A DNA stretch of 64,000 nucleotides from Patescibacteria group bacterium (GTDB lineage: Bacteria; Patescibacteriota; Minisyncoccia; Phycocordibacterales; PALSA-1337), in the NCBI GenBank assembly GCA_024654575.1, contig JANLHG010000005.1:1260-65259 (forward strand), given 5' to 3'. Below, piece after piece: positions 9,139-36,224 of this stretch. The notes under the pieces are model-generated. The model was not told the DNA's origin. It worked only from the letters and a program-made list of their open reading frames with translations, and made no database searches. Position numbers and translations under genes: made by a program. The stretch's first letter is position 1; each line of letters begins with the position of its first letter.

Positions 9139-10524
9139 ATGAACACCAAAACCATTCAACCTAGGAGTTTAAGAATTCCTCCACAAAATATTGATGCTGA
9201 AAAAGCAGCTCTTGGTTCTATTATGTTAAGACCTGAAGCAATGCACGATGTAGTTGATATTATTCGTGGAGAATCTTTTTATGCAGAAAAACACCGACTC
9301 ATCTGGCAAACAATGCTTGATTTACAAAGCAAGAGTTCTCCTATTGATTTACTTTCTCTTTCTTCACGACTTAAAGAAAAGGGTTTATTAGACGCAATTG
9401 GCGGAATGTCGTATCTCACAGAAATTGCAGGTTTTGTCCCCTCTTCTACAAACGCAAACCATTATGCCGAAATTGTTCAAAAAAAATATATGATGCGGAG
9501 TCTAATTAATGCTTCGGAATATATTGGAGAGTTAGGTTTTGATGAAGCAGGAGAACTTGAAGAACTTTTGGAAAAAGCGGAAAAAAGAATTTTCGAAGTG
9601 ACAAATTATTCCGGTATTCATAAGTTTATTGAACTTAAAGATACTCTAGTTGAAGCATGGGATAGACTTGACACTCTTCACAAATCTAAAGATGAAATGA
9701 GAGGTGTTTCAACTGGTTTCAAAGAATTAGACCTAAAACTTGCTGGTCTGCAAAAATCCGACCTCATTATTCTAGCTGCTCGACCTTCTATGGGAAAAAC
9801 ATCTCTAGCTCTTGATATTGCTCGAAAATCAGCCACAAATCATAATGTGCCAGTAGGAATATTTTCTCTTGAAATGAGCTCCCAACAATTAGTAGATAGA
9901 ATGCTTGCCGCAGAATCACAGGTTGATTCTTGGAAACTACGAACTGGACAGAATCTTTCAATTGAGACAGATTTCAAACATATTCGTGATGCAATGGATA
10001 AATTATCAAAAGCACCGATTTATATTGATGATCAACCCGGAAATAACATTTTAAAAATGCGTTCTGTCGCACGACGTCTTAAAAGTGAAAAAGGATTAGG
10101 TCTAATTATCGTTGATTATTTACAATTAATGGTCCCAACTCAAGCACGACATTCCGACAATCTTGTTCAGCAAGTGACAGAAATATCTCGCTCTCTTAAA
10201 AATCTAGCCAGAGAATTAGATATCCCCGTTTTAGCCCTTTCTCAACTTTCTCGAGCCGTTGAACAACGTGGAGGTAGACCTCGCCTATCGGACTTGCGAG
10301 ATTCTGGTTCTATTGAACAAGATGCGGATGTGGTAATGTTTATACATCGTGAAGATAAATATAATGAAAATTCTGAAAGACCAAATATTGCCGAAATTCT
10401 TATCGAAAAACACAGAAATGGTCCTACTGGAAAAGTAGAACTATATTTTGATGAAAAGAAAACGACTTTCCTTAGTGTAGAAAAAACAGATTTCAAAGAT
10501 TTTGATAAAGAAGGAGGATTTTAA
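9139..10524 (+). CDS. dnaB: Replicative DNA helicase DnaB
   Basis: The N-terminal domain is PPQNIDAEKAALGSIML. The RecA-like core has Walker A (ARPSMGKTSLAL) and the LIIVDYLQLM motif. Length is 461 aa, so there is no intein. Confidence 0.92.
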   Translation: MNTKTIQPRSLRIPPQNIDAEKAALGSIMLRPEAMHDVVDIIRGESFYAEKHRLIWQTMLDLQSKSSPIDLLSLSSRLKEKGLLDAIGGMSYLTEIAGFVPSSTNANHYAEIVQKKYMMRSLINASEYIGELGFDEAGELEELLEKAEKRIFEVTNYSGIHKFIELKDTLVEAWDRLDTLHKSKDEMRGVSTGFKELDLKLAGLQKSDLIILAARPSMGKTSLALDIARKSATNHNVPVGIFSLEMSSQQLVDRMLAAESQVDSWKLRTGQNLSIETDFKHIRDAMDKLSKAPIYIDDQPGNNILKMRSVARRLKSEKGLGLIIVDYLQLMVPTQARHSDNLVQQVTEISRSLKNLARELDIPVLALSQLSRAVEQRGGRPRLSDLRDSGSIEQDADVVMFIHREDKYNENSERPNIAEILIEKHRNGPTGKVELYFDEKKTTFLSVEKTDFKDFDKEGGF

Positions 10525-10530
10525 AAAAAT

Positions 10531-11145
10531 ATGGATTCTATCAATAAACTTATTGAATATTTCAGTGAATTCCCAGGTATCGGTCCCAGACAAGCCAAAA
10601 GATTTGCTTTCTTTTTACTTACAAAAAATAAAAGTTATTTGGAATCACTGACCAAAAATATAACTGAACTTAAACAATCAATTCGCATTTGTGAAGAATG
10701 TTTTAGATTTTATACCAAAGATAAAAATGATTTACCTATTTGTAATATCTGCAAAAGTGTCAATCGTGATAATTCCATCATGATGATTGTAAGTAGAGAT
10801 GTTGATATGGAAACTATCGAAAAAAGTCATTCTTTCAACGGAAAATATTTTGTGCTTGGCGGAACAGTACCTATTCTTGATAAAAACCCAGAAATGAGAG
10901 TACGTTCACGGGAATTAATAAAAAGAATAGGTATTTTAGATGGTTCATTAAAAGAAATAATTTTAGCTCTAAACGCTAACTCCGAAGGCGAAAATACAAC
11001 TGATTATTTAAAATCTATTCTCTCTTCCATCACCGAAAAACATTCAATCAAAATATCTATTCTCGGCCGAGGGCTTTCCACAGGCACAGAACTAGAGTAT
11101 TCCGATTCCGATACCATCAAAAATGCTTTAAAAAATAGAGCTTAA
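10531..11145 (+). CDS. recR: Recombination protein RecR
   Basis: EFPGIGPRQAKRFAFFLL is the HhH motif. A C4 zinc finger (CEEC…CNIC) and a Toprim region are present. Length is 204 aa. Confidence 0.9.
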   Translation: MDSINKLIEYFSEFPGIGPRQAKRFAFFLLTKNKSYLESLTKNITELKQSIRICEECFRFYTKDKNDLPICNICKSVNRDNSIMMIVSRDVDMETIEKSHSFNGKYFVLGGTVPILDKNPEMRVRSRELIKRIGILDGSLKEIILALNANSEGENTTDYLKSILSSITEKHSIKISILGRGLSTGTELEYSDSDTIKNALKNRA

Positions 11146-18057: not shown

Positions 18058-18110
18058 AAATGAATTATTTCACTTTTTTACCAAAAATGCTATGATACAA
18101 ATATTCCGGC

Positions 18111-18185
18111 GTGGCGCAGCGGTAGAGTGAAGAAGCGAATACTTGGAGCTTCTGCAAGGCCGGAGCGTGACGGCGCGAGGCAGGG
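18111..18185 (+). pseudogene. Degenerate tRNA-like fragment (pseudo-tRNA related to the adjacent tRNA-Asn 5' half)
   Basis: TCCGGCGTGGCGCAGCGGTAGAGTG…AAGCGAATACTTGG aligns to the tRNA-Asn 5' portion TCCGGTGTAGCTCAGCGGTAGAGCA…TAAGCGATTGG. It does not fold into a cloverleaf. Confidence 0.35.
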
Positions 18186-18256
18186 TCGAAATATTTTTTA
18201 TCAAAAAAATACTTTTGACGGCACCTGTTTTTATAATTTTAAAAATCGTATTGTGT

Positions 18257-18332
18257 GCTCCGGTGTAGCTCAGCGGTAGAGCAGTCGCCTGTTAAGCGAT
18301 TGGTCGCAGGTTCGATCCCTGCCGCCGGAGCA
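18257..18332 (+). tRNA. tRNA-Asn (anticodon GTT)
   Basis: Cloverleaf by eye: acceptor TCCGGTG/CGCCGGA, D arm GCTC-AGCGGTA-GAGC, anticodon stem GTCGC/GCGAT with loop CTGTTAA, T arm GCAGG-TTCGATC-CCTGC, discriminator G73. No encoded CCA. Confidence 0.85.
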
Positions 18333-18355
18333 GACAATAGGATTTAAATCATGTG

Positions 18356-18395
18356 TAAGCGATTGGTCGTTGGTTCGAATCCAACCGCCGGAGCA
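18356..18395 (+). repeat. Duplicated tRNA 3' half (anticodon-loop to 3' end) with compensatory T-stem substitutions, att-like
   Basis: TAAGCGATTGGTCG-TTGG-TTCGAAT-CCAA-CCGCCGGAGCA compared with tRNA-Asn TAAGCGATTGGTCG-CAGG-TTCGATC-CCTG-CCGCCGGAGCA. T-stem pairing is preserved despite different bases. It lies 24 nt after the intact tRNA. Confidence 0.7.
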
Positions 18396-18476
18396 GTTGA
18401 CAAGTATATTTAACTATGATTAGATAACATAATAGTAGTTTTTTGACATATTTTTTGGTAGTTAGCTATTTTTCTT

Positions 18477-18866
18477 ATGAACCCGATAACAAATCAACTG
18501 CGTACGATGTATGAGGAAGAGGTTGCTGACATACGACGTAAAAAACATTACAGCAATCCAAAACTTGACCTTGAAGATATTCTGAAAAAGAGTGTTCTCC
18601 TGGGTACAGTTTCAGACCACTTCAATAGATTTATGGCTGTAATGGATTTATTCGATAAAAATAAGCTCAAAACTGGAGAGGACTATTTCTATGCTTCATT
18701 TATCTTAAGTCAAGAAGATGAAGCTCCAAATTTAGCCCTTGGTTGCATGTTGGCACAAGCATCAGGGAAACTAAATTTTTCCGGAAATATAGACGTCCCT
18801 GATGTTGACGAATACATCAAGTGTCTACAAGATGCATTCTTCACCAGACTTACTGGTATAAATTAA
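18477..18866 (+). CDS. Hypothetical protein (129 aa)
   Basis: Has an intact ORF with a downstream terminator. No recognisable motif. Confidence 0.45.
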   Translation: MNPITNQLRTMYEEEVADIRRKKHYSNPKLDLEDILKKSVLLGTVSDHFNRFMAVMDLFDKNKLKTGEDYFYASFILSQEDEAPNLALGCMLAQASGKLNFSGNIDVPDVDEYIKCLQDAFFTRLTGIN

Positions 18867-18876
18867 CCTATCACTG

Positions 18877-18927
18877 CCCCTCAAAGACTGCCACGATGGC
18901 ACTTTGTTGGGGTAGTTTTTTTATACA
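18877..18927 (+). terminator. Rho-independent terminator (imperfect long hairpin plus T7)
   Basis: cccctcaaagactgccacgatggcactttgttgggg followed by tagttttttt. Confidence 0.55.
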
Positions 18928-18980
18928 AAACTAAACATCCTCATTTCCTTTTCAATAACAGATCAACTAATAATTCTAAT

Positions 18981-19000
18981 CTCGTCCAACATGCGGAGTT
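18981..19000 (+). repeat. Degenerate tRNA-3'-end-like direct repeat, copy R2
   Basis: ctcgtccaacatgcggagtt, compared with the R1/tRNA segment TTCGAATCCAACCGCCGGAGCA. Confidence 0.45.
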
Positions 19001-19085
19001 AATCAAGATGATTCCCTTGCATTATTTGTAACTCTTATGTTATGATGTAAATATCACCACGAAAAAGCTCCTGTGAGGCTAGTCC

Positions 19086-19604
19086 TTACAGGGCCTTTTT
19101 CTTTATATGTGTGTATTCTATCTTGCTTTTAACTTCATTAAGAAATATAAGATATTTTTCTGAATTTGTATTGATTTTTTTAAGTAAAGCCGAATATCTT
19201 TTATGATCTGGTATTACTACTGCTTGAAGTTTTTTATTATCTCTAAGATACTCTGCTAAACAGTAAAAATCACCATCTCCAGATACAATAACGGCTTTGT
19301 TGTAATGAGGATATTCAATCATAGAATGGAGAACAAGCTCTGCATCACAATTTCCTTTCGTGGAGTTATCTTTATATATTAAAGTTGGTTTAAAAATAAC
19401 AATGTATCCATCTTCTTGAAGCTTTTTATACATTTGCTGATTACCTTCCACATAACCTATAAAGATATATGCTTTTTCAATTTTATATTTATCTTTCAGA
19501 TATATTCTGAATTTAGTAAAATCAATTTTCCACCCTTGATTTTTTATACCAAGATAAAGATTTTGACTGTCTATAAAAGCATAATTATTTTCTCCAGATG
19601 TCAT
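19086..19604 (-). CDS. NYN-domain (LabA-like) predicted ribonuclease
   Basis: The N-terminal part is YAFIDSQNLYLGI. It continues with …NCDAELVLHSM… and VIVSGDGDF, following the NYN/PIN-like acidic motif pattern. Confidence 0.75.
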   Translation of the reverse strand: MTSGENNYAFIDSQNLYLGIKNQGWKIDFTKFRIYLKDKYKIEKAYIFIGYVEGNQQMYKKLQEDGYIVIFKPTLIYKDNSTKGNCDAELVLHSMIEYPHYNKAVIVSGDGDFYCLAEYLRDNKKLQAVVIPDHKRYSALLKKINTNSEKYLIFLNEVKSKIEYTHIKKKAL

Positions 19605-19654
19605 ATTAAAATTAATATTACCATAGAATATGCAGTAAATTTAATTACAATAGG

Positions 19655-19680
19655 CTCTAACTTCGTTCAACATGCGGAGC
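19655..19680 (+). repeat. Degenerate tRNA-3'-end-like direct repeat, copy R3
   Basis: ctctaacttcgttcaacatgcggagc. Confidence 0.5.
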
Positions 19681-19989
19681 CAAGTAGGTTTACTAGCTAA
19701 ATCTAGTACCAAATTATATGGAGAAGCTATTGTAAAATATAGCTTTTTTCCGTTTACAGAAAGGTTCTGAATTAAATAATTCAAAAATACTTTTTTCTCG
19801 TGTGGTTTAGAACTTTCAAAGATTGACTTAGCACGGCGAGCAACTGAAATCACTGATGCTACAGTGTTTTGATAGTCATAATCTGCTTTTGTGTGTTCTT
19901 CAAGTTCAATGTTTAAGACTTGTATCTTGTCGTGATATAATGTCGGAATGAAAGGCTACGTTGCAGATTAAGAAAGGAGAAAAACCTCG

Positions 19990-20091
19990 ATGGCAGTGGG
20001 GACCACGTTAGGTAGTGATTTCATCAAAAAGTTGGAGCTCAGAAATCATTTAGATATTAACTATGATACAATGGATATATGGAATCATTAA
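19990..20091 (+). CDS. Candidate small ORF (33 aa) with a strong SD
   Basis: aaaggag lies 7 nt upstream of ATG. The product is MAVGTTLGSDFIKKLELRNHLDINYDTMDIWNH*. Not in the ORF track because of its length. Confidence 0.2.
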   Translation: MAVGTTLGSDFIKKLELRNHLDINYDTMDIWNH

Positions 20092-20330
20092 TAAAATTAG
20101 ATATTTTCTTTTTTATATCTTCTGTGGCAACAGTTATATTGACGATTTTAGTTTCCATTATCCTTTTTTATTTTATCAAAGCTGGAAAGAATCTCTATCT
20201 GCTTTCAGAAGAACTTAAGAATGATTTTAAGGGGTCGGAAGCGTTCGTCGTAGAGCTTAAGGAACGTTTGGAAGACAACATAGTTTTTCGACTTTTCTTT
20301 CCCCCATCTCGAAAAAAACGAAATCATTAA
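20079..20330 (+). CDS. Small membrane protein (83 aa)
   Basis: One TM helix (FFISSVATVILTILVSIILFYFI) and a charged tail. Confidence 0.35.
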   Translation: MESLIKLDIFFFISSVATVILTILVSIILFYFIKAGKNLYLLSEELKNDFKGSEAFVVELKERLEDNIVFRLFFPPSRKKRNH

Positions 20331-20352
20331 TAATTAATAACTTTTTAAAACA

Positions 20353-20694
20353 ATGCAAAAGAAAACAACAAAAATAAATTCCACTGCAATGGAATTAGGT
20401 ATCCTCGGTGCAAGTATTGCTGGTATAGCTGCTGCATATTTCTTCCTCGGTCCAAAAGGTAAAAAACACCAGAAACAAATGAAGGTATGGGCAATAAAAA
20501 TGAAAGCTGATGTTGTAGAAAAACTCGAAGAAGCTCGTGATATAAGCGAACCCATATTTCATCAAATCATTGACTCTATAGCGGAAGAATATGAACAAAA
20601 AGCGAAAATTGGTCGTGAAGAAATTCAGTTATTGGCGAAGGACTTAAAGAAACACTGGAAATTAATTAGTAAGGAAGCAGGTATTGATAAGTAA
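20353..20694 (+). CDS. YtxH-like (DUF948) membrane-anchored protein
   Basis: GILGASIAGIAAAYFFLGPKGKKHQKQMK follows the YtxH G-rich helix plus APKSGK-like motif. It ends in a charged coiled-coil tail. Confidence 0.5.
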   Translation: MQKKTTKINSTAMELGILGASIAGIAAAYFFLGPKGKKHQKQMKVWAIKMKADVVEKLEEARDISEPIFHQIIDSIAEEYEQKAKIGREEIQLLAKDLKKHWKLISKEAGIDK

Positions 20695-20770
20695 TATATA
20701 TGTACACATACAACTGGTACTCACAAATTATCAAACCATAATGTAAGTGCTATAACCCCTTACACACCCG

Positions 20771-20796
20771 CTCTAACTTCTTCCACCATGCGGAGC
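20771..20796 (+). repeat. Degenerate tRNA-3'-end-like direct repeat, copy R4 (with TTYGAACCTG tail motif about 45 nt downstream)
   Basis: ctctaacttcttccaccatgcggagc, then …ctaggtagggcgtttgaacctgtgg at about 20830-20850. Confidence 0.5.
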
Positions 20797-20903
20797 TGCA
20801 GAAAATAATACCAAAGTATAGGGGTTATTTTATACCATCTAGGTAGGGCGTTTGAACCTGTGGTATGATTTTGATATTAGAATTAGAATAGCACTACACA
20901 CAT

Positions 20904-21581
20904 ATGAAATTATTTTTAGGGGGTGGAGGAAGAAAAGAAGATTCGACAGAGCTAGACAAAAATTTTGTTGCTAATTTAGATTTATCTAAACCTCTTTTAT
21001 ATATTCCAATAGCTATAAATACTAACAAGTATCCATACTCCGGTTGTATAAATTGGCTTCGTGATATATTAAGCCCCTTAGGGGTAAAGAATATTGTAAT
21101 GTGGATTGAAGATGATTTAAAGAAAAAACAAGAGAAAGATTTTGAACAATTCTCAGGTGTCTATATAGGAGGTGGTAACACTTTCAAATTACTTAAAGAA
21201 TTAAAAGAATTTGGTACATTCGAAATATTGAAAAGATTAGCCAAAAAAGATGTTCCAATTTATGGCGGAAGTGCTGGTGCAATAATAATGGCAAAAACCA
21301 TCATACCAGCATTATCTGCAGATGAAAATAATGTTGGTTTAACTGATTATTCAGCAATGAATTTAGTAAAAGATTATGATATTTGGTGTCATTATTCAGA
21401 GTCGTTAGATACGATGATAAAAGATTATACGAATAAATATGGTTTAAATAAAATAGTAGCGATACCTGAAAAAGCTGGACTTTTTATTACAGAAAAATCT
21501 AAAATAGTGATAGGACCAGCGAATGTTTATATCATCGAACAAAATAGGAAAACTATTTTAAAACCTGGATCAAAATTTTAA
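20904..21581 (+). CDS. Peptidase S51 (dipeptidase E / alpha-aspartyl dipeptidase-like) family protein
   Basis: Contains the IYGGSAGAIIMAKTII (GxSAG) nucleophile-elbow motif in a class-I-GATase-like fold context. Length is 225 aa, similar to PepE. Confidence 0.65.
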   Translation: MKLFLGGGGRKEDSTELDKNFVANLDLSKPLLYIPIAINTNKYPYSGCINWLRDILSPLGVKNIVMWIEDDLKKKQEKDFEQFSGVYIGGGNTFKLLKELKEFGTFEILKRLAKKDVPIYGGSAGAIIMAKTIIPALSADENNVGLTDYSAMNLVKDYDIWCHYSESLDTMIKDYTNKYGLNKIVAIPEKAGLFITEKSKIVIGPANVYIIEQNRKTILKPGSKF

Positions 21582-21682
21582 GCTTGCTCATCTAAAATAT
21601 TTGTGGTACTTTTTGTTATAGATTTACTCATTGAAAATTAGGACAAAAAACATCAATCAAACCCGTAGAAAGGAATTTTACA

Positions 21683-21883
21683 ATGCAAAAACTAGCCAAG
21701 TTGGTTATCGGTGATACAGTCGCTTTAATCACTCCTGCTGGAATGCCACCAGAGAGATTTCGTCATTACATCCCTTTAATGGAAGAATATGTTCAAAAAG
21801 AGGGTTTTCGAACAAAAACATATCTTTCATCTGAACAATCATCAGACCAAGAGTTGGCGGAATTATTTTATTATATAGCTTGA
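21683..21883 (+). pseudogene. N-terminal fragment of an LD-carboxypeptidase (peptidase S66, LdcA/MccF-like); truncated at 66 aa
   Basis: LVIGDTVALITPAGMPPERF matches the S66 N-terminus (L.pGD.I.ivAPSs). The ORF ends long before the catalytic Ser/His region. Confidence 0.4.
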
Positions 21884-22068
21884 CATTTTTAGATGTAAAA
21901 TGATAAACTTTATCTATGAAATTTAGTGTTATAAACACATGGAATCGTAGAGGTAGCCGAATTATTCAGGCTACTTTTGAGTGTTTGTAATTTTCTCCTA
22001 GCGTATTATGAACTTTCTAAAGCGGCCTGAAGGTCGCTATTTTATTATCATATTAACCAAAAACTAGC

Positions 22069-22659
22069 ATGAGCAAAAACCTAAAAATAATTCCTGATTC
22101 AAAATTAGTTAAAATACCGATAAAAGATAACGGTGAACCTTTAGTTTATATAAATGATTTTGTTCCAAAAGTGGTAATCAAAATTCCTAAATACATCAAA
22201 GATGAGGGTGAGAAATTCATTAAACAATCTTCAAAGGTAAGAATCAGTGTTGCAAAAATGTTAAAAATTGCCCAAGAATTGCTTCCAGATCAATATAGAC
22301 TAAGAATAAGAAGTGGCTACAGGTCGTTAATGATTCAGAAAAAAGCTTATCAGAGAACGTTTAATAAAATGAGAAAAAATAATCCCAACTGGAGTTTAGA
22401 CAAACTAAAAGATGAAGTGAGTAAATTTGTTGCTCCTTTAGACATTGTTCCACCACATTCAACCGGCGGAGCTGTTGATATATCAATAATTGGACCAAAT
22501 GATAAACAGTTAGATATGGGGACAAGAATTGGACAAGATACTCGTTTGGAAAAAACCAGAACTGATTCTAATAAGATATCATCAATGGCCATAAAAAATA
22601 GAAAATTACTGGTGAAAATAATGTCTACAGCTGGATTCATAAATTATCCAACCGAATAG
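22069..22659 (+). CDS. D-Ala-D-Ala dipeptidase-like zinc peptidase (M15D, VanX/DdpX family)
   Basis: Contains SGYRS and HSTGGAVDISI (compare VanX SxHxxGxAxD) in a 196-aa protein. Confidence 0.65.
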   Translation: MSKNLKIIPDSKLVKIPIKDNGEPLVYINDFVPKVVIKIPKYIKDEGEKFIKQSSKVRISVAKMLKIAQELLPDQYRLRIRSGYRSLMIQKKAYQRTFNKMRKNNPNWSLDKLKDEVSKFVAPLDIVPPHSTGGAVDISIIGPNDKQLDMGTRIGQDTRLEKTRTDSNKISSMAIKNRKLLVKIMSTAGFINYPTE

Positions 22660-22743
22660 TGGCATTGGTCTTATGGTGACAGATATTGGGCTGCTAAATT
22701 AAAAAAAAGATACTCTATTTATAAAGGTATTTAAATTAAAAAC

Positions 22744-23439
22744 ATGAAAAATAAAACAATCGGGGTGCTTGGAGGAATGGGACCAGGAGCCTCAGCTAAT
22801 CTGTATATGGAGATTATTAAGTATTCTCAACAGAAATATGGTGCAATTCAGGATATTGATTATCCGCCCGTTATTATTTACAGCTTACCCTTGGAAGGTT
22901 TTGATGAAAAAGGAATTGCTAATGAGAAATTGGTTGAGAGCCAACTCATAGATGGGGTTAAAAAGTTAGAATCGGCAGGTTGTGATCTGATAATAATTGG
23001 TTGTAATACCGTTCATATTCTTTTCAATAAAATGCAAAAAGCTGTCAAAATTCCTATCCTAAATATCATCGAGGTGACAAAAAATAAAGTTATGAAGTTT
23101 GGCTATAAGAAGATCGGGTTATTTGCCTCAGAAAGCACAAGTAACTCCGGTCTATATCAAAATAATTTTAAGAAAGACGGAATTCAGGTCATTTCTCCAA
23201 ATAAAGATCAGCAGAAAATATTAAATAGAGTGATAGAACATGTAATGGGTGGTAATCAAAAAGCAGATGATATCATTCTTTTAAAAGATGTCGCTCGAGA
23301 TTATCTAAAACAAGGAGTCGAAGCGATCGTTATGGGCTGTACTGAAATCCCTCTAGCAATAAATCAGACTCATACAGATATTAAACTATTTAATACAATA
23401 GAAATAATTGTACAGTCAGCAGTAGATTTTTCTCTATAA
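22744..23439 (+). CDS. Aspartate racemase (Asp/Glu/hydantoin racemase superfamily)
   Basis: Contains the three racemase motifs GVLGGMGPGAS, IIGCNTVHILF and MGCTEIPLAI. Length is 231 aa. Confidence 0.8.
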   Translation: MKNKTIGVLGGMGPGASANLYMEIIKYSQQKYGAIQDIDYPPVIIYSLPLEGFDEKGIANEKLVESQLIDGVKKLESAGCDLIIIGCNTVHILFNKMQKAVKIPILNIIEVTKNKVMKFGYKKIGLFASESTSNSGLYQNNFKKDGIQVISPNKDQQKILNRVIEHVMGGNQKADDIILLKDVARDYLKQGVEAIVMGCTEIPLAINQTHTDIKLFNTIEIIVQSAVDFSL

Positions 23440-23444
23440 ACACA

Positions 23445-23478
23445 CCCTAACTTCTTCCACCATGTGGAGCAGTTGACA
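23445..23478 (+). repeat. Degenerate tRNA-3'-end-like direct repeat, copy R5, sharing the GGAGCAGTTGACAA extension with R1
   Basis: ccctaacttcttccaccatgtggagcagttgaca. Confidence 0.5.
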
Positions 23479-23501
23479 AAATCAATAAAAAGATATAATA
23501 T
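23473..23501 (+). promoter_or_regulatory. Promoter-like element inside R5 (TTGACA-17-TAATAT), oriented antisense to the NUDIX/AbiE genes
   Basis: The hexamers carry a 17-nt spacer. There is no plus-strand ORF downstream for about 2 kb. Confidence 0.3.
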
Positions 23502-23630
23502 CAACTCTAGAAATAAAGAAAGTGTTGCACTTTTTACTCGTATCAATTACCTCAAGACTATGCTTTATTCCAAAAAATTTCCTCCAGCATCGGAAGTTAT
23601 ACAAACCCTTGCTTGTTATTTACCCAACAT

Positions 23631-24080
23631 TTAAAAGTCAATAAAAATTTCTTTTATTTTTTTCTGAGTATCTTTTAGTTGTCCATCAAAAAGCAAATAA
23701 TCTTTTAATTGCATAAAGGGTACCCACTTATAAGCTCTCACCTCACCATCTTTTGGTTTAATTTCATTGTCATCACCAACAAAACGGAAACCAAAAAAGT
23801 ATCTTTTTGATCCTTCATAGTTCTGACCGTCGCGATTCATTTTAATAACCTTAAATTTGAACTTTATTGGATTACTACTCTGACCCACAAACTGAAGAGA
23901 TTTTTTTTCTATACTCAACTCTTCATGTATCTCTCGATATACTGCATTTTCTAAAGTTTCTTCTTGTTCAACTCCGCCACCAGGAATTGCAAAATACCTA
24001 TCTTCAAAAGATTCTAAATTCACTAAAAGAAACTCTTTGTCTTTATTAATAATAAGTGCTGAAACGCCTTTTCTGTACAT
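23631..24080 (-). CDS. NUDIX hydrolase
   Basis: Contains the NUDIX box GGGVEQEETLENAVYREIHEELSI (Gx5Ex7REUxEExGU). Confidence 0.8.
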   Translation of the reverse strand: MYRKGVSALIINKDKEFLLVNLESFEDRYFAIPGGGVEQEETLENAVYREIHEELSIEKKSLQFVGQSSNPIKFKFKVIKMNRDGQNYEGSKRYFFGFRFVGDDNEIKPKDGEVRAYKWVPFMQLKDYLLFDGQLKDTQKKIKEIFIDF

Positions 24081-24089
24081 AATATATAA

Positions 24090-24794
24090 TCATTTATTTA
24101 AATCTTCATTATCTTGCATGATTTTTAACAAAAAAATTGTATCGAATTTTAATTTTGCTCGTGCTGAATCTTTTTGTGGATCAGTCAATAACTCTCCAAG
24201 ACCATCCAAGATATGCTTGTTGTCCATTTTTTCTAACATCTCAACGCACTTTACTAAAGCATCCTTAAAAGACATACCCGACCTCTCTTCAACAATCTGA
24301 CGATTGATCGGCCAGTTATTTTTGGCAAAATAATGAATATCAAAAATATCTCGGCTTGTTTTTCCAATCCTTTCATACATAGCCATAAGCTTATGCGCAA
24401 ACATATCCTCTTGGACCATTACAAGCATTGAAATACCAAGTAAAGTTTTCACCTCATATTTTGACCCAAATTGTCTGCGACTTACTTCGACTTTTATATT
24501 CTGAGCTTTGGGATCGTAAGAAATAACATTTCTTAAATTAGATTTCTGTATGTATGAATCTGTAATTTTTCCATAATTACTTATAATCTCGTTTATCTTT
24601 TCAAAAACTTCGGTTTCTTTAGTTTCATCTAATAAATCAAAATCCAAATCTACAGAATTTCTTGGTAAATCATAAAACATCATAGCCGCTGTACCACCCT
24701 TGAAACCAAGATATGACGCGAGAGAAATATCTGAATAAATATCTTTCAAAATCTGAAGCATAATATTTTTATGTTTTGAATAATCTAATGTCAT
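24090..24794 (-). CDS. abiEii: AbiEii/AbiGii-family nucleotidyltransferase toxin (DUF1814; type IV TA / abortive infection)
   Basis: FKGGTAAMMFYDLPRNSVDLDFDLL is the Pol-beta-like NTase GG[ST] motif plus acidic dyad, characteristic of AbiEii. It overlaps the upstream partner by 4 bp. Confidence 0.8.
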   Translation of the reverse strand: MTLDYSKHKNIMLQILKDIYSDISLASYLGFKGGTAAMMFYDLPRNSVDLDFDLLDETKETEVFEKINEIISNYGKITDSYIQKSNLRNVISYDPKAQNIKVEVSRRQFGSKYEVKTLLGISMLVMVQEDMFAHKLMAMYERIGKTSRDIFDIHYFAKNNWPINRQIVEERSGMSFKDALVKCVEMLEKMDNKHILDGLGELLTDPQKDSARAKLKFDTIFLLKIMQDNEDLNK

Positions 24795-25375
24795 ATAGTT
24801 TTATAATATTCATTGACTTTTTTAACCATTCTTTTATTGTGATAAATCGGTAATATCTCAAATACTTTATCCCAATTCAAATTAGTTAAGTTGTCAAAAT
24901 GATAATCCTTGCTTACATATATTCTATCCAAAAAAGCACGCTCTCGTGTAGCAATTGCATAACCATCTTTATGTTCAATACCTAAAGTATTACTTAAAAC
25001 ATAATCCTTCATCCGAACAAAAGTAATTTTTTGTTCTCTAACTATAATTTCTCGATTAACATAAGAAGAAACGAAAATATTTCCGTAATATTGAAAATTT
25101 ATACCCTCTCTTGTTAAGACAGTTTCAAAACTAATATAGGCAGGAGTATAGATTCTAGTTGCTAATTCAAATCGATTATAGTTTTTATCCTTTGCATAAA
25201 AGCCACGATGCACTCGAATTAACTTTCCAGCCACGACATACTTGTTTAATCTTCCACTGACAGTTGATTTTTTCTCTTCACTCCATAATAAAGCCACATC
25301 TTTTGTGGAAAAGATTGTTTTTGACGATCTTAATAATACCTCTAAATATTCACCTTTTGTTGGTTTTTTGTCCAC
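24791..25375 (-). CDS. abiEi: AbiEi-family antitoxin / transcriptional regulator (wHTH plus C-terminal domain)
   Basis: The gene is 194 aa, lies immediately upstream of the AbiEii gene and overlaps it. A near-palindromic operator sits upstream. Size and organisation are canonical for AbiEi. Confidence 0.6.
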   Translation of the reverse strand: MDKKPTKGEYLEVLLRSSKTIFSTKDVALLWSEEKKSTVSGRLNKYVVAGKLIRVHRGFYAKDKNYNRFELATRIYTPAYISFETVLTREGINFQYYGNIFVSSYVNREIIVREQKITFVRMKDYVLSNTLGIEHKDGYAIATRERAFLDRIYVSKDYHFDNLTNLNWDKVFEILPIYHNKRMVKKVNEYYKTI

Positions 25376-25382
25376 TTTATTA

Positions 25383-25411
25383 CTGGAAGTTACCTTAAAA
25401 GTAATCTCCAG
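25383..25411 (-). promoter_or_regulatory. Near-perfect inverted repeat upstream of abiEi; candidate autoregulatory operator
   Basis: ctggaagttacc-ttaaaa-gtaatctccag is an 11-nt arm pair with 2 mismatches. It lies 8 nt upstream of the abiEi start. Confidence 0.5.
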
Positions 25412-25456
25412 TTCATATCTTAATACTTTTGGTAAATAAGTGCAAGTGATACGAGC

Positions 25457-25480
25457 GAGCTTCGTCCAACATACGGGAGC
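25457..25480 (+). repeat. Degenerate tRNA-3'-end-like direct repeat, copy R6 (with TTCGAACCTG tail motif)
   Basis: gagcttcgtccaacatacgggagc, then …ctaggacattcgaacctgc. Confidence 0.5.
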
Positions 25481-25547
25481 AGATAAAATATCTAGGACAT
25501 TCGAACCTGCTATAGAATTTTATATTTAAATATGGTATATTTTTGGC

Positions 25548-26003
25548 ATGGAAAATTGTGTTTTTTGTAAAATCGTAAGTGGCGAACTGCCTTGCTACAA
25601 AATATGGGAGGATGAAAAGCATTTAGCTTTTCTTTCCCGCAACCCCAACACGGAAGGTTTTTCAGTTGTCATAACCAAAGAGCACTATCCGAGCTATGCA
25701 TTCGATCTTCCTGATCAGGTTTTAACCGACCTTATTCTTGTAACAAAGAAAGTCGGAAAGTTGATTGATTCTAAACTTGATGATGTCGGAAGAACCGGCA
25801 TGATCTTTGAAGGATTCGGAGTTGACCATATCCATGCCAAACTTTTCCCAATGCATGGTACAAAAGATATGGGAGAGTGGAAGTCGATGAAATCCAATGT
25901 GGACAAGTATTTTGAAATCTACGAAGGATACATCTCTTCCCATGATTATAAACCCTCAACTAACGAAGAGCTTGCGAAAATTGCTTCTAAGTTCAAGCAG
26001 TAA
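25548..26003 (+). CDS. HIT-family (histidine triad-like) hydrolase
   Basis: The N-terminus is CVFCKIVSGELPCYKIWEDEKHLAFL. The HIT-like motif is VDHIHAKLFP. Confidence 0.55.
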   Translation: MENCVFCKIVSGELPCYKIWEDEKHLAFLSRNPNTEGFSVVITKEHYPSYAFDLPDQVLTDLILVTKKVGKLIDSKLDDVGRTGMIFEGFGVDHIHAKLFPMHGTKDMGEWKSMKSNVDKYFEIYEGYISSHDYKPSTNEELAKIASKFKQ

Positions 26004-26086: not shown

Positions 26087-26503
26087 ATGAAAATAGAAAA
26101 AATTGTTATGTTCTTACTTCGTTTGGTTATGAGTTTTACTTTTCTTTGGGCATTTTTTGATAAGGTCTTTGGTTTAGGTTTTGCTACTACCGCAGATAAG
26201 GCATGGATTAACGGAATATCACCAACTTATGGTTTTTTGAAATTTGCATCAAAAGGTCCATTCGTTGAAATATTTCATAATCTAGCCGGTGTAGTTTTAG
26301 TTGATTGGTTATTTATGCTTGGTCTTCTTTTTGTTGGTCTTGCTCTCATTTTCAACAGATTTATAAAATTAGGATGTCTTGCTGGAATTTTAATGATGGC
26401 ACTTATGTATCTAGCTTTGCTTTTCCCAATAAACAATCCTATTATTGATGAGCATATTGTTTATATTCTAGTTCTAGCCCTTATAGCTATCAAAAAAGAA
26501 TAA
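26087..26503 (+). CDS. DoxX-like small integral membrane protein
   Basis: A 138-aa protein with four predicted TM helices. Confidence 0.4.
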   Translation: MKIEKIVMFLLRLVMSFTFLWAFFDKVFGLGFATTADKAWINGISPTYGFLKFASKGPFVEIFHNLAGVVLVDWLFMLGLLFVGLALIFNRFIKLGCLAGILMMALMYLALLFPINNPIIDEHIVYILVLALIAIKKE

Positions 26504-33813: not shown

Positions 33814-34950
33814 TCAACCAACAAGTTTCCATAGAAGCTCAGTTCCTCCTTTGAAGACTTGGACTTCTCCGACTTTCTGCGGAACGACAAGCGCCCCGCG
33901 TTCGATCGTCATCATCTCCGAGCTCACTTCCATGCCATAAAGCGCGAGGAAGTTTTCGGAAAGGAACGGACCGAGATGTTCGAGTGCGTTGTCCTGGTCG
34001 AAGGTCATCGTGTAGAGCTCAACGGCCGAGGGAGCGGTGAAGATGCCAGCCGCACAGCCATAGCAGCGAGACTTTGCACTTTCATCGTGAGGAGCGGAAT
34101 CCGTTCCTGCTCCGAAGCGACGATTACCCGAAGTCACATACTGCCGGACTTTTGCACGATGCGTTTCGCGCTTCGGCACAGGCTTGCAGTAGTGGCCAGG
34201 ATTCATCCCACCCCAGAACATGGCGTTGCGATTAATCATCAGATGATGAGCAGTCACAGTCGCATGGATATCGTGATCGACTTCTGCGACGAAGTCGGCC
34301 GCTCGTCCATCGGTGAGATGTTCGAAGACCACCGGCAATCCTGGAAAGGACTTGAGGATGGGCTTGAGGTCGCGGTCCACGGAAACGCTCTCGCGATCGA
34401 ATTCGTCGACATCTTCCTCGACTGCTTCGAAGTGTCCAAGCAATGGGATTTTGTGTTTCTCCATCACCTCGAACACCGGATAGCGACCAAGAAGATTCTT
34501 CACGCCGTGCGCCGAGCCAGTGGTGCCACCCTGGCCTTTTTGATTGGCCATGTAGAGCTTCACCGCTCGCCAAACACCTTCTTCGAAACCGCGCACGACT
34601 TCTTCAGGATCGATATGATCCGTCAGATACAGCGTCATGCAAGGCACGAAGTCGTAATCCTTCTTCCAATACCATTCTTGTCCTTTCGGAGCATTAGTAT
34701 TGAAGCGTAAACTCGTCATAACTTGTTCGATCTCTTTACGGTAATCTTTCGCTTTTTCAATCGTCGTTACCGGGTCAGCAAGGTTTGGCATGATAATCGC
34801 CCCCGTTGCATGCTGTTTGAGTGTACACGGAAGAACGGTCTTGAGCATATCACCACTTCGAAGGTGAAGATGACGGTCAAACCATCGAGGTATTGTTACC
34901 GAGTTTTCTTTCATGAGTTTTCCTTTTTGATAAACGATGTGGGTTTCCAC
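33814..34950 (-). CDS. pyrC: Dihydroorotase, type II (E. coli PyrC-like); GC-rich foreign composition
   Basis: FDRHLHLRSGDMLKTVLP, AIIMPNLADPVTT, CMTLYLTDHIDPEEVVRGFEEGV, PLLGHFE, VVFEHLT, GTDSAPH and CYGCAAGIFTAPSA align motif-by-motif to E. coli PyrC. DNA is about 55% GC. Confidence 0.9.
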   Translation of the reverse strand: METHIVYQKGKLMKENSVTIPRWFDRHLHLRSGDMLKTVLPCTLKQHATGAIIMPNLADPVTTIEKAKDYRKEIEQVMTSLRFNTNAPKGQEWYWKKDYDFVPCMTLYLTDHIDPEEVVRGFEEGVWRAVKLYMANQKGQGGTTGSAHGVKNLLGRYPVFEVMEKHKIPLLGHFEAVEEDVDEFDRESVSVDRDLKPILKSFPGLPVVFEHLTDGRAADFVAEVDHDIHATVTAHHLMINRNAMFWGGMNPGHYCKPVPKRETHRAKVRQYVTSGNRRFGAGTDSAPHDESAKSRCYGCAAGIFTAPSAVELYTMTFDQDNALEHLGPFLSENFLALYGMEVSSEMMTIERGALVVPQKVGEVQVFKGGTELLWKLVG

Positions 34951-35780
34951 GGAGTCCGCAGATGAATTGCACCGAAGCCGATCGCTTTCGCGCCGAGCCT
35001 CCTAAGCTTTTCCATGTCTTCGAATTCCATGATACTTGGACCGATCACAGGAAGCGATCCTTGTTTAGCGAGAGCTTCGACTGCCGCCCAGTTGTGTTTC
35101 TGTGCCGGTTTGCCGGAGACGCCTCCGCCTCCACCACCGACTTGTTTTTCGAGCTTCGCTAAAGGGGTCTGCCCGCTGTTAGTAAAGACCGTCTTCCACG
35201 GCACGCTGTTGAGGGAAACCGCTTCCGCGATTCCGACAAGTCCGCGTGCAATAGTGAGATAGTCCTGATCAGCCGAGACTTTGACGATTACGGGGTGACG
35301 CGAAGCGCGTTTGACCGCCTTCACACTATTCACCACCATTTCTGCCTGTTCGATTGCATGGCCAGTATTCGGACACGAGACGTTGACTTCAAGCGCAACG
35401 ATATCGAAGCGATTGAGCATCTCCGCCATTTCCACCAGTTCCTTTTCATCGCCGAAAATTGATCCGGCTGTTGGGAACTTTTTGAAATCGAGTTTGGGAC
35501 CGACTTCTCGGCACCACCACTCGACACCAGGATTAGTGAGCCCAACTTTATTGACCGCTCCGCCTGGAATCAGGCGAACGCAGGTCCAAGGCTTCCACCA
35601 TCGTAGGTTTCCGATACGCGGGTTGCGCGTCAGAGATTTGATGACTACAGTGAAGAGTTCGGGCTTGATGAGACCGAGCCACACCAGTGGCCGTTCCCAA
35701 GGCCAGCCCTTGCCATCAAAGGCAAGAGCGCCGCTTGCAACCATGTATTTGAACGCATGTCCGTTTGATAATGTGATCAT
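34911..35780 (-). CDS. pyrD: Dihydroorotate dehydrogenase, class 1 (Cys active site, PyrD 1A-like); GC-rich foreign composition
   Basis: Contains NKVGLTNPGVEW, ALEVNVSCPNTGH (NxSCPN), GGGGGVSGKP and a C-terminal GFGAIHL. It overlaps pyrC by 40 nt. Confidence 0.85.
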   Translation of the reverse strand: MITLSNGHAFKYMVASGALAFDGKGWPWERPLVWLGLIKPELFTVVIKSLTRNPRIGNLRWWKPWTCVRLIPGGAVNKVGLTNPGVEWWCREVGPKLDFKKFPTAGSIFGDEKELVEMAEMLNRFDIVALEVNVSCPNTGHAIEQAEMVVNSVKAVKRASRHPVIVKVSADQDYLTIARGLVGIAEAVSLNSVPWKTVFTNSGQTPLAKLEKQVGGGGGGVSGKPAQKHNWAAVEALAKQGSLPVIGPSIMEFEDMEKLRRLGAKAIGFGAIHLRTPWKPTSFIKKENS

Positions 35781-35870
35781 AGGATCTCCGTTTGTTGATC
35801 GTTTTAAATGTTCATTTCCATTCTGACATTACCTTATCTCAAAGTTATTTAATAGTAAAGATATGTTATA

Positions 35871-36224
35871 ATGACCTATATGAAAAAAATACTAATTACT
35901 ATTTTTGTTTTAATTGTTATTTGTGCAATATGGTTTTTTATACGAACTCCATCACCTGTCTTAAATATTCAAGATGCTTCAGCTACTGTAAACATAAAAA
36001 GCTTCGCTTTCAGTCCTTCACAGGTAAACATTAAAGTTGGAGATAAAGTTGTGTGGACGAATTTAGACAGTGCCCCTCACGATGTTACATTTGAAAATGG
36101 TGAGCAATCAAAAACATTAGCTCAAGGTGAAAGTTTTGATACGGTGTTCAACGAACCAGGAACTTATCCATATATTTGTAGTATCCATCCTTCAATGAAA
36201 GGAACTGTTATAGTGTCAAACTAA
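35871..36224 (+). CDS. Cupredoxin (plastocyanin/amicyanin-like type-1 copper protein), membrane-anchored
   Basis: KVGDKVVWTNLDSAPHDVTF…YPYICSIHPSMKGTVIV supplies the His…Cys…His…Met copper ligands. Confidence 0.8.
   Translation: MTYMKKILITIFVLIVICAIWFFIRTPSPVLNIQDASATVNIKSFAFSPSQVNIKVGDKVVWTNLDSAPHDVTFENGEQSKTLAQGESFDTVFNEPGTYPYICSIHPSMKGTVIVSN

Follow-up and report, generated by a model that had tools for sequence, protein, structure and literature searches.

A probable decayed island of large serine recombinase elements beside tRNA-Asn in a Patescibacteria genome

The window analysed here is a 64-kb stretch of a Patescibacteria genome (GenBank assembly GCA_024654575.1, contig JANLHG010000005.1, positions 1,260 to 65,259) in which a tRNA-Asn gene is followed by a series of short repeats, R1 to R6, that part small gene modules. 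We propose that the 7 kb after the tRNA gene represent a decayed island that arose by repeated site-specific insertion of elements of the large serine recombinase (LSR) type at tRNA-Asn. From sequence comparison we assign this reading a probability of about 0.7, taken jointly with the proposal that the R-type site, approximately 30-36 nt long, derives by divergence from the tRNA 3' end and T arm and doubles as the C-terminal coding tail of the recombinase. The window is one case of a recurrent architecture composed of tRNA-Asn, a recombinase gene (whole or as a remnant) and an array of sites on the same strand that part small modules.

Patescibacteria have tiny genomes, in which characterised mobile elements are, to our knowledge, few so far; elements of the present type were not found described for this group in the literature searched. 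The window is AT-rich, with a G+C content of about 32%, and the closest relatives of its proteins belong to metagenome bins of Paceibacteria and other Patescibacteria.

The recombinase remnant and its sites

Five direct copies of a 15-nt core, TCNTYCAMCATRYGG, begin at positions 18982 (R2), 19663 (R3), 20779 (R4), 23453 (R5) and 25462 (R6). All are intergenic and all are confined to the 7 kb after tRNA-Asn, the whole motif being about 25-36 nt long. Two scans were run over all 64 kb. A 24-nt consensus gave four matches with no more than three mismatches, where none was expected, and had no match elsewhere in the window; scans with a position weight matrix (PWM) recovered the same five sites. 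The five repeats listed in an earlier note on this DNA are therefore real.

The key to their nature is R3 (19647-19682, plus strand; PWM score 39), which is joined to a protein-coding remnant on the minus strand. This remnant (19641-19937, with its stop codon at 19641-19643) comprises the last 88 codons of what is, judged by homology, an LSR gene. Its minus-strand translation from 19674 to 19937 corresponds to residues 13-100 of the consensus of the C-terminal family, with 85% identity (tblastn E = 5e-49), and reads through R3 as WLRMLNEVRAYCN followed by a stop codon. The earlier note had stated that the window contains no integrase or recombinase, and had taken the reading frame across R3 for a by-product of nucleotide similarity; neither statement can be upheld, the frame being the end of a real recombinase gene. 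The window copy retains only the part after the coiled-coil tip and has no resolvase catalytic domain, and the N-terminal part of the recombinase is absent throughout the 64 kb. Thirty database homologues share 50-77% identity with the remnant, one of which is named 'site-specific DNA recombinase'. At the C-terminus several of these proteins have WLRGQDSNLEP or WLPELDSNQRPTG, the translated antisense of a tRNA T arm.

A scan of one genome per species gave 146 matches, of which 79 loci were retrieved (named L001 onward). A full recombinase open reading frame (ORF) of 500-550 aa was present in about 37 of the 79, at the same position as the remnant of the window. About 35 of the 79 possessed the last 100 or so codons only. 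In most of the full and truncated loci the recombinase gene or its remnant is followed directly by tRNA-Asn(GTT) on the other strand; a few copies are located at tRNA-His or tRNA-Gln instead. Read in antisense, the tRNA-Asn 3' end (...NCGGAGCCA or ...GCGGAGCCA) gives the final codons of the gene, TGG-CTC-CGN (W-L-R). Because of this overlap, the element supplies a new 3' end to the tRNA. The protein of L019 (505 aa) contains the domains Resolvase (PF00239), Recombinase (PF07508) and Zn_ribbon_recom (PF13408) and matches the PHROG integrase family phrog_95 with E = 1.5e-71, which identifies it as an LSR. These islands also contain a second, distantly related serine recombinase (about 28% identical; L017 16904-18037, L018 11288-12862), which has tRNA-Asn or a 3' half resembling it as its neighbour.

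Elements with a full or nearly full recombinase gene indicate where insertion may occur. In four such loci the 3' end of the genome's own tRNA is repeated exactly 6.7-9.7 kb upstream of the tRNA, over 19 nt in L019 and L049, 17 nt in L073 and 15 nt in L011. All four repeats extend from the CCA into the T-loop, and since the tRNA sequences differ among the four genomes they must be true target duplications. The crossover would accordingly lie in the T-loop or at the 3' end of the tRNA. LSRs exchange DNA at a central 2-bp crossover; around the four elements, identity blocks of 15-19 nt are what the sequences show. The element of L019 carries an N6-adenine methyltransferase of the Eco57I/TaqI_C type and a SocA/Panacea antitoxin. 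Besides the recombinase, a 372-aa protein (p372; L019 4473-5591) without match in Pfam, PHROGs or NCBIfam is kept in 35 loci with 70-76% identity, so that p372 and the recombinase make up the core of the element. Blocks of this core are 80-95% identical at the nucleotide level between species and the recombinase proteins reach 90-97% identity, which implies that the family is currently mobile; the neighbouring core proteins of the hosts that share these blocks are only about 40-60% identical to those of the window. A phage origin was considered and dropped, as a search of the collection of viral contigs yielded no relative. Elements with a full recombinase also have, towards their far end, a conserved site of another type, which is longer (about 110 nt) and reads LLPLVDKFRTANW.RIK.DLEFSG.... 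It is located at 1363-1475 in L019, about 200 nt inside the 19-nt tRNA repeat, and at 694 in L065, directly at the boundary; there are about 34 other copies. It partly resembles the internal DQS/ITKD site of the recombinase described below.

The remaining window sites are orphans, that is, sites without an attached recombinase, and all lie on the plus strand. R2 (18966-19001) reads LRMLDEIRIIS-stop on the minus strand and is adjoined by a gene for an NYN-domain protein, as are sites in L031 and L065. R4 (20763-20798; PWM score 38) reads LRMVEEVRAGV-stop, which can be compared with the recombinase-attached tail WLRWVEDVRTGV-stop of L024. R5 (23437-23472) reads LLHMVEEVRVCL-stop and has GGAGCAGTTGACAA in common with R1. 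R6 (25446-25481) is the most degenerate, reading SRMLDEARSYH, with 14 of the 15 core positions identical to R2. Inspection of the sequence after R4 and R6 revealed partial T-arm-like pieces, TTTGAACCTG at 20841-20862 and ATTCGAACCTGC at 25492-25510 (both plus strand), which share the pattern ctagg...TTYGAACCTG. The R1/R5 extension and the R4/R6 tail had both been described before and were found as described.

A comparison across loci connects these sites with the tRNA. After the residues ...SPxWLR, recombinase genes and remnants end either in the real tRNA or in a diverged tail such as WLRTWDDVRM, WLRWVEDVRTGV, WLPLVDEFRTLNW... or the WLRMLNEVRA of the window, with the general pattern WLRxxD[DE]VR. 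R-type tails are found at the end of full-length genes in L017, L035 and L039 and at the end of remnants in other loci. At the nucleotide level the tails keep GGA.GA.GTTCGAAC, which is the T-loop shifted by 3 nt, and intermediate forms, among them L013:1394 (TGGCTCTGCGGGCTAGAGGATGTTTGAACCTAC), connect the motif with the T arm. A PWM scan of 80 loci found 79 sites scoring at least 20 on the strand of the recombinase and none on the other strand. Orphan sites occurred in 37 loci, with two or more in 15 and three or more in 7, spaced at 0.3-3 kb; L041 (6 sites), L013, L018, L043 and L046 are examples of such arrays. The idea that the repeats are attachment (att)-type sites which descend from a tRNA 3' end and mark successive insertions at the tRNA is thus supported.

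It might be thought that such repeats are generic intergenic elements (REP-like, terminators or promoters) without relation to recombination. They are indeed intergenic, and R1, R4 and R6 are located 70-110 nt upstream of plus-strand genes. A generic repeat would however be expected at other places, and there is no copy elsewhere in the window, while in the 80 loci the sites occur only beside the recombinase, 79 of 79 on its strand; occurrence at unrelated loci had been named in the earlier note as the outcome that would speak against its interpretation. No Rfam family was found for the repeats either, and we can give this explanation hardly any credence. A search for a hairpin common to the sites was likewise abandoned: by eye, TCCGAAC/GTTCGGA may pair in copies of the L046 type and GGCTC/GAGCC elsewhere in the window copies, and there is no common structure.

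Origin of the array

The island may have arisen as follows. An LSR element, its recombinase gene antisense to the tRNA, would insert at tRNA-Asn with a crossover in the T-loop or 3' end. The last 15-19 nt of the tRNA would be replaced by sequence of the element, and the native 3' end would be displaced by 7-10 kb to the other end of the element. Each new insertion would move older material outward from the tRNA and leave one more site. Later deletions would strip the recombinase genes, so that R3 keeps 88 codons and R2, R4, R5 and R6 keep the site alone, and the modules would be surviving cargo: the NYN nuclease, the peptidase-racemase set, and the NUDIX gene with AbiE. What the sequences themselves show are the homologies, the overlap of gene and tRNA, the direct repeats at four full-recombinase elements, the strand bias and repeated occurrence of the site arrays, and the variable modules; that the recombinase catalyses the insertions, the exact position of the cut and the order of events are inferred from this arrangement.

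Several observations weigh against this scheme. Apart from GCTCCG and a T-loop-like core, R2-R6 do not match the genome's own tRNA; they therefore cannot be freshly displaced ends: either they are old or the inserted DNA brought them in. The arrays contain about four orphan sites for every recombinase remnant, so that insertion followed by decay requires many complete gene losses in which a 30-nt site survives. About 30 nt beside some orphan sites are common to genomes in which the neighbouring genes are unrelated. The pooled orphan sites have a dN/dS of 0.53 in the recombinase frame and of about 1.0 in the other frames, a bias which is consistent with descent from recombinase tails and is only modest; in the five window copies alone a protein-like substitution pattern was not significant. 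One pair of genes between R3 and R4, encoding an 83-aa protein (hyp83) and a YtxH-like protein, is 70% and 59% identical to a pair at 13188-13819 of L083 which lies near the S30AE gene with a VanY gene between, inverted with respect to the window; this pair may be an old neighbourhood that has been rearranged, and not cargo. Finally, the comparison included no strain-level relative in which the gain or loss of one module could show.

Some of these points would be accounted for if the array were a platform for cassettes; a cassette array derived from the tRNA 3' end is also the alternative that the earlier note named. The R sites would then bound recombinase-less cassettes of one to three genes, like the recombinase-less units of staphylococcal cassette-chromosome islands or the cassettes of integrons. 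A recombinase, whether resident or visiting, would insert, excise and shuffle these in trans, and the array would result from traffic and not from the decay of 7-10 kb elements. The 4:1 excess of orphan sites fits this explanation, as do arrays with a spacing of 0.3-3 kb that contain unrelated single genes (ankyrin, Bax1-I, rhodanese, GNAT, HAD, GATase, Schlafen). The stretch of about 30 nt adjoining the sites is common to cassettes with different genes (three times in L041, and in L043 and L082; also in L043 together with L046). The NYN gene, a hairpin and CTTTTTCGTGGTGAT form a unit bounded by sites in the window, L031 and L065, with differing neighbours, which suggests movement in trans. 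Conservation at the nucleotide level between loci, however, is limited to the recombinase-p372 core and extends to no cassette; circular or empty-site forms were not seen, and with respect to the sites the genes point either way. LSRs as a rule recombine the attachment site of the element (attP) only with that of the target (attB), so that the reuse of look-alike sites would be unusual. On balance we consider a cassette platform rather unlikely and prefer repeated insertion followed by decay, which accounts for the recombinase remnant, the bias to one strand and the active family.

A further regularity concerns the truncated recombinase genes of the relatives. About 32 truncated loci, from independent genomes, break at the identical nucleotide, directly before ATTACTAAGGA (codons I-T-K-D; e.g. 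L002 9944, L013 8188, L048 941), which by inspection would correspond to the tip of the coiled coil. The DNA upstream of the break is unrelated between loci except for a short (T)GGnGA consensus, and internal deletions in L064 and L072 have the same right edge as the truncations. The 38 fragments examined contain no stops or frameshifts, their dN/dS is 0.18, as in the full genes, and it is often among these that a fragment has its nearest relative. The fragment of the window begins 12 codons past the common break (at 19937), so that the break itself is not visible there.

Two explanations of the break were tried and rejected. The left partner is not, as a general rule, the genome's own tRNA 3' end, since the mean was 6.7 of 16 matches against 6.4 in shuffled sequences and only three loci stood out. 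A split of the recombinase by an insertion was not supported either, as no N-terminal part was found within 10 kb in truncated loci or anywhere in the window. Translation of the fragment as a small protein was also rejected, in view of a TGA directly upstream in several copies and of the lack of a conserved start codon. The break at one nucleotide of the recombinase-internal AGTATTACTAAGG is hence an unexplained regularity. One could speculate that the system is a counterpart of the integron based on tRNA-Asn and a serine recombinase: T-arm sites of about 30 nt would bound recombinase-less cassettes that are captured and reshuffled in trans, and a site-specific cut directly before ATTACTAAGG would then shut off the recombinase gene in about 32 genomes, fixing the array. 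We regard this as improbable.

R1, the 5' remnant and the group I intron

The tRNA-Asn(GTT) gene itself (18259-18331, plus strand) stands intact and without an intron at one boundary of the island, as ARAGORN and Rfam (RF00005, 69.3 bits) agree, and as the earlier note had it. A spacer of 24 nt (18332-18355) separates it from R1 (18356-18396), a stretch of 41 nt on the same strand that is 85% identical to the 3' half of tRNA-Asn, starting at anticodon position 36 and running to the end of the tRNA. The T-stem of R1 is GTTGG/CCAAC, whereas that of the tRNA is GCAGG/CCTGC. On the minus strand R1 reads LLRRLDSNQRPIA. The copy and its T-stem had been recognised correctly. They were taken, however, as the signature of a 3' end supplied by an attP, and here the comparison with relatives leads to a different conclusion.

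Insertion of a group I intron between positions 35 and 36 of tRNA-Asn in Patescibacteria has already been published (PMC13011429). In our set, RF00028 scores 50-94 bits in six loci (L030, L031, L034, L037, L044, L082), and the tRNA-Asn of L005, L008, L009, L036 and L064 is also split by an intron; in L037, for example, the split gene occupies 10304-10584. ARAGORN misses these genes. Some of these introns contain an HNH-like ORF with a C..NCH motif (L005, L030, L037, L044). In the intron-bearing relatives the 5' exon ends in CCTGT and the 3' exon begins with TAAGCG. In at least 11 related loci, what precedes the tRNA 3' half beside the recombinase has the hallmarks of a group I intron and is not the remainder of a tRNA. 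For a time YTYPLITKRDGLYH, which follows 'PIAY' in several loci, was read as an attP arm, with a crossover in the anticodon loop; it proved to belong to the group I intron (RF00028, 50-94 bits).

The first base of R1 coincides with the 3' splice junction (G/TAAGCG), where the 3' exons of the relatives begin as well, and R1 matches the intron-bearing tRNA-Asn genes of relatives with E = 4e-13 (nhmmer). Its T-stem GTTGG/CCAAC is an ordinary tRNA-Asn allele, present in L007, L031 and L054. Within the spacer, CATGTG might correspond to the 3' end of an intron; in nhmmer the alignment of R1 with the intron-bearing genes runs on into CATGTG, where the posterior probability is low. Another part of the spacer, AGACAATAGGA, could resemble the last recombinase codons after the tRNA of L048. 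Because R1 starts at the intron site, is preceded by CATGTG and has an ordinary T-stem, it is best read as an orphan 3' exon, and is probably not an attP arm. As in the published cases, R1 begins at the 3' splice junction, and the relatives have introns beside the same recombinase. Unlike those cases, the window has no detectable intron (RF00028 gave no match in it even at E up to 5), and possible exon pieces flank an intron-less tRNA-Asn.

One of these pieces is a 5' tRNA-Asn-like remnant at 18105-18190 (plus strand). The earlier note had described a pseudo-tRNA at 18111-18185. The resemblance is genuine for 18105-18127, where acceptor and D arm are identical to the 5' end of the tRNA at 20 of 23 positions, but 18128-18190 is not tRNA-like, and neither tRNA nor intron models match the remnant. 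Its TCCGGCG can pair at 7 of 7 positions with the CGCCGGA of R1 and also with that of the tRNA. Tentatively, the remnant, which stops after the D arm, may be the 5' end that belongs to R1. Between 18128 and 18190 there is a weak resemblance to the P6-P7 region of the relatives' intron (best z = 2.3). The suggestion that 18128-18258 is a relic of the intron was dropped because the likeness was not significant. R1, and possibly also the 5' remnant, probably belong to an older tRNA-Asn copy of the intron-bearing type whose history is separate from that of R2-R6.

These observations also bear on the possibility that a tyrosine integrase encoded elsewhere inserted elements into the tRNA 3' half, in which case R1 would have been supplied by an attP, R2-R6 would be decayed copies and the reading frame would be accidental. 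A copy of 40 nt of the 3' half with a compensated T-stem is what such an enzyme could leave, and the repeats are direct and related to the tRNA. R1 begins, however, exactly at 35/36, where at least six relatives have a group I intron, and its T-stem is a normal allele. Elements with a full recombinase duplicate 15-19 nt and not a 40-nt half, and the gene joined to R3, of which relatives hold the full version at that place, encodes a serine recombinase. We judge a tyrosine integrase very improbable as the source of the island and retain insertion by an LSR. The observation of the repeats that started this work is real and its interpretation was right in outline; it was wrong on the enzyme, on R1 and on the reading frame.

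Modules, related systems and implications

The gene content of the modules was compared with 82 related loci. Between R1 and R2 there is one ORF of 129 aa (18477-18866, plus strand) without Pfam match or homologue in these loci. The R2-R3 module consists of the NYN-domain nuclease (19086-19604, minus strand; PF01936, E = 5e-13). The hyp83 and YtxH-like ORFs occupy 20079-20694 (plus strand) in the R3-R4 module, which also contains the recombinase remnant. Genes of the R4-R5 module (20904-23439, plus strand) were assigned by Pfam to an S51 peptidase, an M15/VanY peptidase and an Asp/Glu racemase; its additional 66-aa ORF (21683-21883) has no Pfam match and looks like a truncated gene. The M15/VanX-like peptidase gene (22069-22734) has an in-frame TAG at 22657-22659 (PTE-stop-WHWSYGD) where relatives lead one to expect W, and is thus either a pseudogene with a nonsense mutation or affected by a base-call error. 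The R5-R6 module (23631-25375, minus strand) encodes a NUDIX hydrolase (PF00293), the AbiEii toxin (PF08843) and the AbiEi antitoxin (PF13338). The contents proposed for the modules were in this way confirmed by Pfam, with YtxH below and AbiEi just below the curated cut-offs.

Most genes of the island have no counterpart in the 82 loci, in line with the view that the repeats part accessory modules absent from relatives. The exceptions are the NYN gene, weak partial matches of the S51 gene (L014, L060) and the hyp83-YtxH pair, which has its relative in L083. The flank upstream of the island, priA-def-fmt-S30AE-DUF167, is syntenic in many relatives. On the other side, R6 is likely the distal edge: in L048 about 0.66 kb separates the recombinase remnant and tRNA from a homologue of the window gene at 26087-26503, the next but one past R6, and this brackets the island at approximately 18332-25540. 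Exact matches to the S30AE or HIT proteins of the window were not found, and the closest HIT context, L083, was too distant and rearranged.

The HIT-family protein (25548-26003) has homologues of 70-85% identity in more than 100 clusters whose labels are divided between Patescibacteria and DPANN archaea (Nanoarchaeota, Pacearchaeota, Woesearchaeota), which suggests cross-domain transfer or mis-binning. L012 and L059 carry a recombinase remnant of the Patescibacteria type under the labels 'Gammaproteobacteria' and 'Pacearchaeota archaeon', probably as a result of binning or labelling errors. The contigs of L014, L046, L050, L061 and L062 stop in or just past the recombinase/tRNA junction, as would fit a repeated or polymorphic site. 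Outside the island, a 2-kb stretch of the window (34000-36000) has a G+C content of 47-52% as compared with the average of about 32% and has no Rfam match at the gathering threshold.

The nearest parallels are islands at tRNA genes, that is, islands of the Islander type and the tycheposons of Prochlorococcus, which also have an intact tRNA at their start, newer insertions that push older ones outward, scattered partial tRNA copies together with integrase fragments, and accessory and defence cargo (10.1101/2020.12.28.424599). Only 27 of 937 tycheposon elements, however, possess an LSR (10.1101/2020.12.28.424599). The enzyme here is an LSR whose stop region is antisense to the tRNA 3' end, and the scattered copies are a diverged family of sites found across genomes and not decayed ends of the host tRNA.

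In composite islands of the staphylococcal cassette chromosome (SCC), direct repeats part tandem units, some of them without a recombinase. The cassette chromosomes of staphylococci and enterococci (SCCmec/ECC) resemble the present system in that an LSR inserts at the 3' end of one conserved gene, and defence cassettes are reported to be mobilised in tandem in them (PMC11470126, PMC6222049). They differ in target (rlmH, here a tRNA), in enzyme (ccrAB, here one recombinase gene) and in host, here Patescibacteria. The match to the NCBIfam model of CcrC, 53.8 bits, is far below the cut-off of 900, which together with the different target excludes membership of the SCC/ECC family.

With integrons and clusters of attC sites the island shares short sites of uniform orientation that part modules of mostly one to three genes, and a recombinase, if present, at one end. 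It is nevertheless not an integron: an IntI tyrosine recombinase is lacking, the sites derive from a tRNA and are about 30-36 nt long as opposed to attC hairpins of 57-141 nt, they do not contain the pair RYYYAAC...GTTRRRY, and the genes lie in both orientations. SSV-type archaeal integrase genes, which encode tyrosine recombinases of archaeal viruses, are split by integration into a tRNA gene. There, too, the recombinase gene overlaps a tRNA-derived att site and gene fragments are left beside tRNAs as footprints, but the serine recombinase gene described here is whole when integrated.

Taken as a natural resource, the loci provide pairs of serine integrases and tRNA sites that are available for testing. 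Those who annotate genomes gain a means to recognise such islands as well as the intron-split tRNA-Asn genes that tRNA finders miss. In the loci gathered, the recombinase family sits beside tRNA-Asn, with a few members at tRNA-His and tRNA-Gln, and moves between species. The locus therefore gives a concrete route of gene gain in Patescibacteria, by which restriction-modification, toxin-antitoxin and other accessory genes may be brought in.

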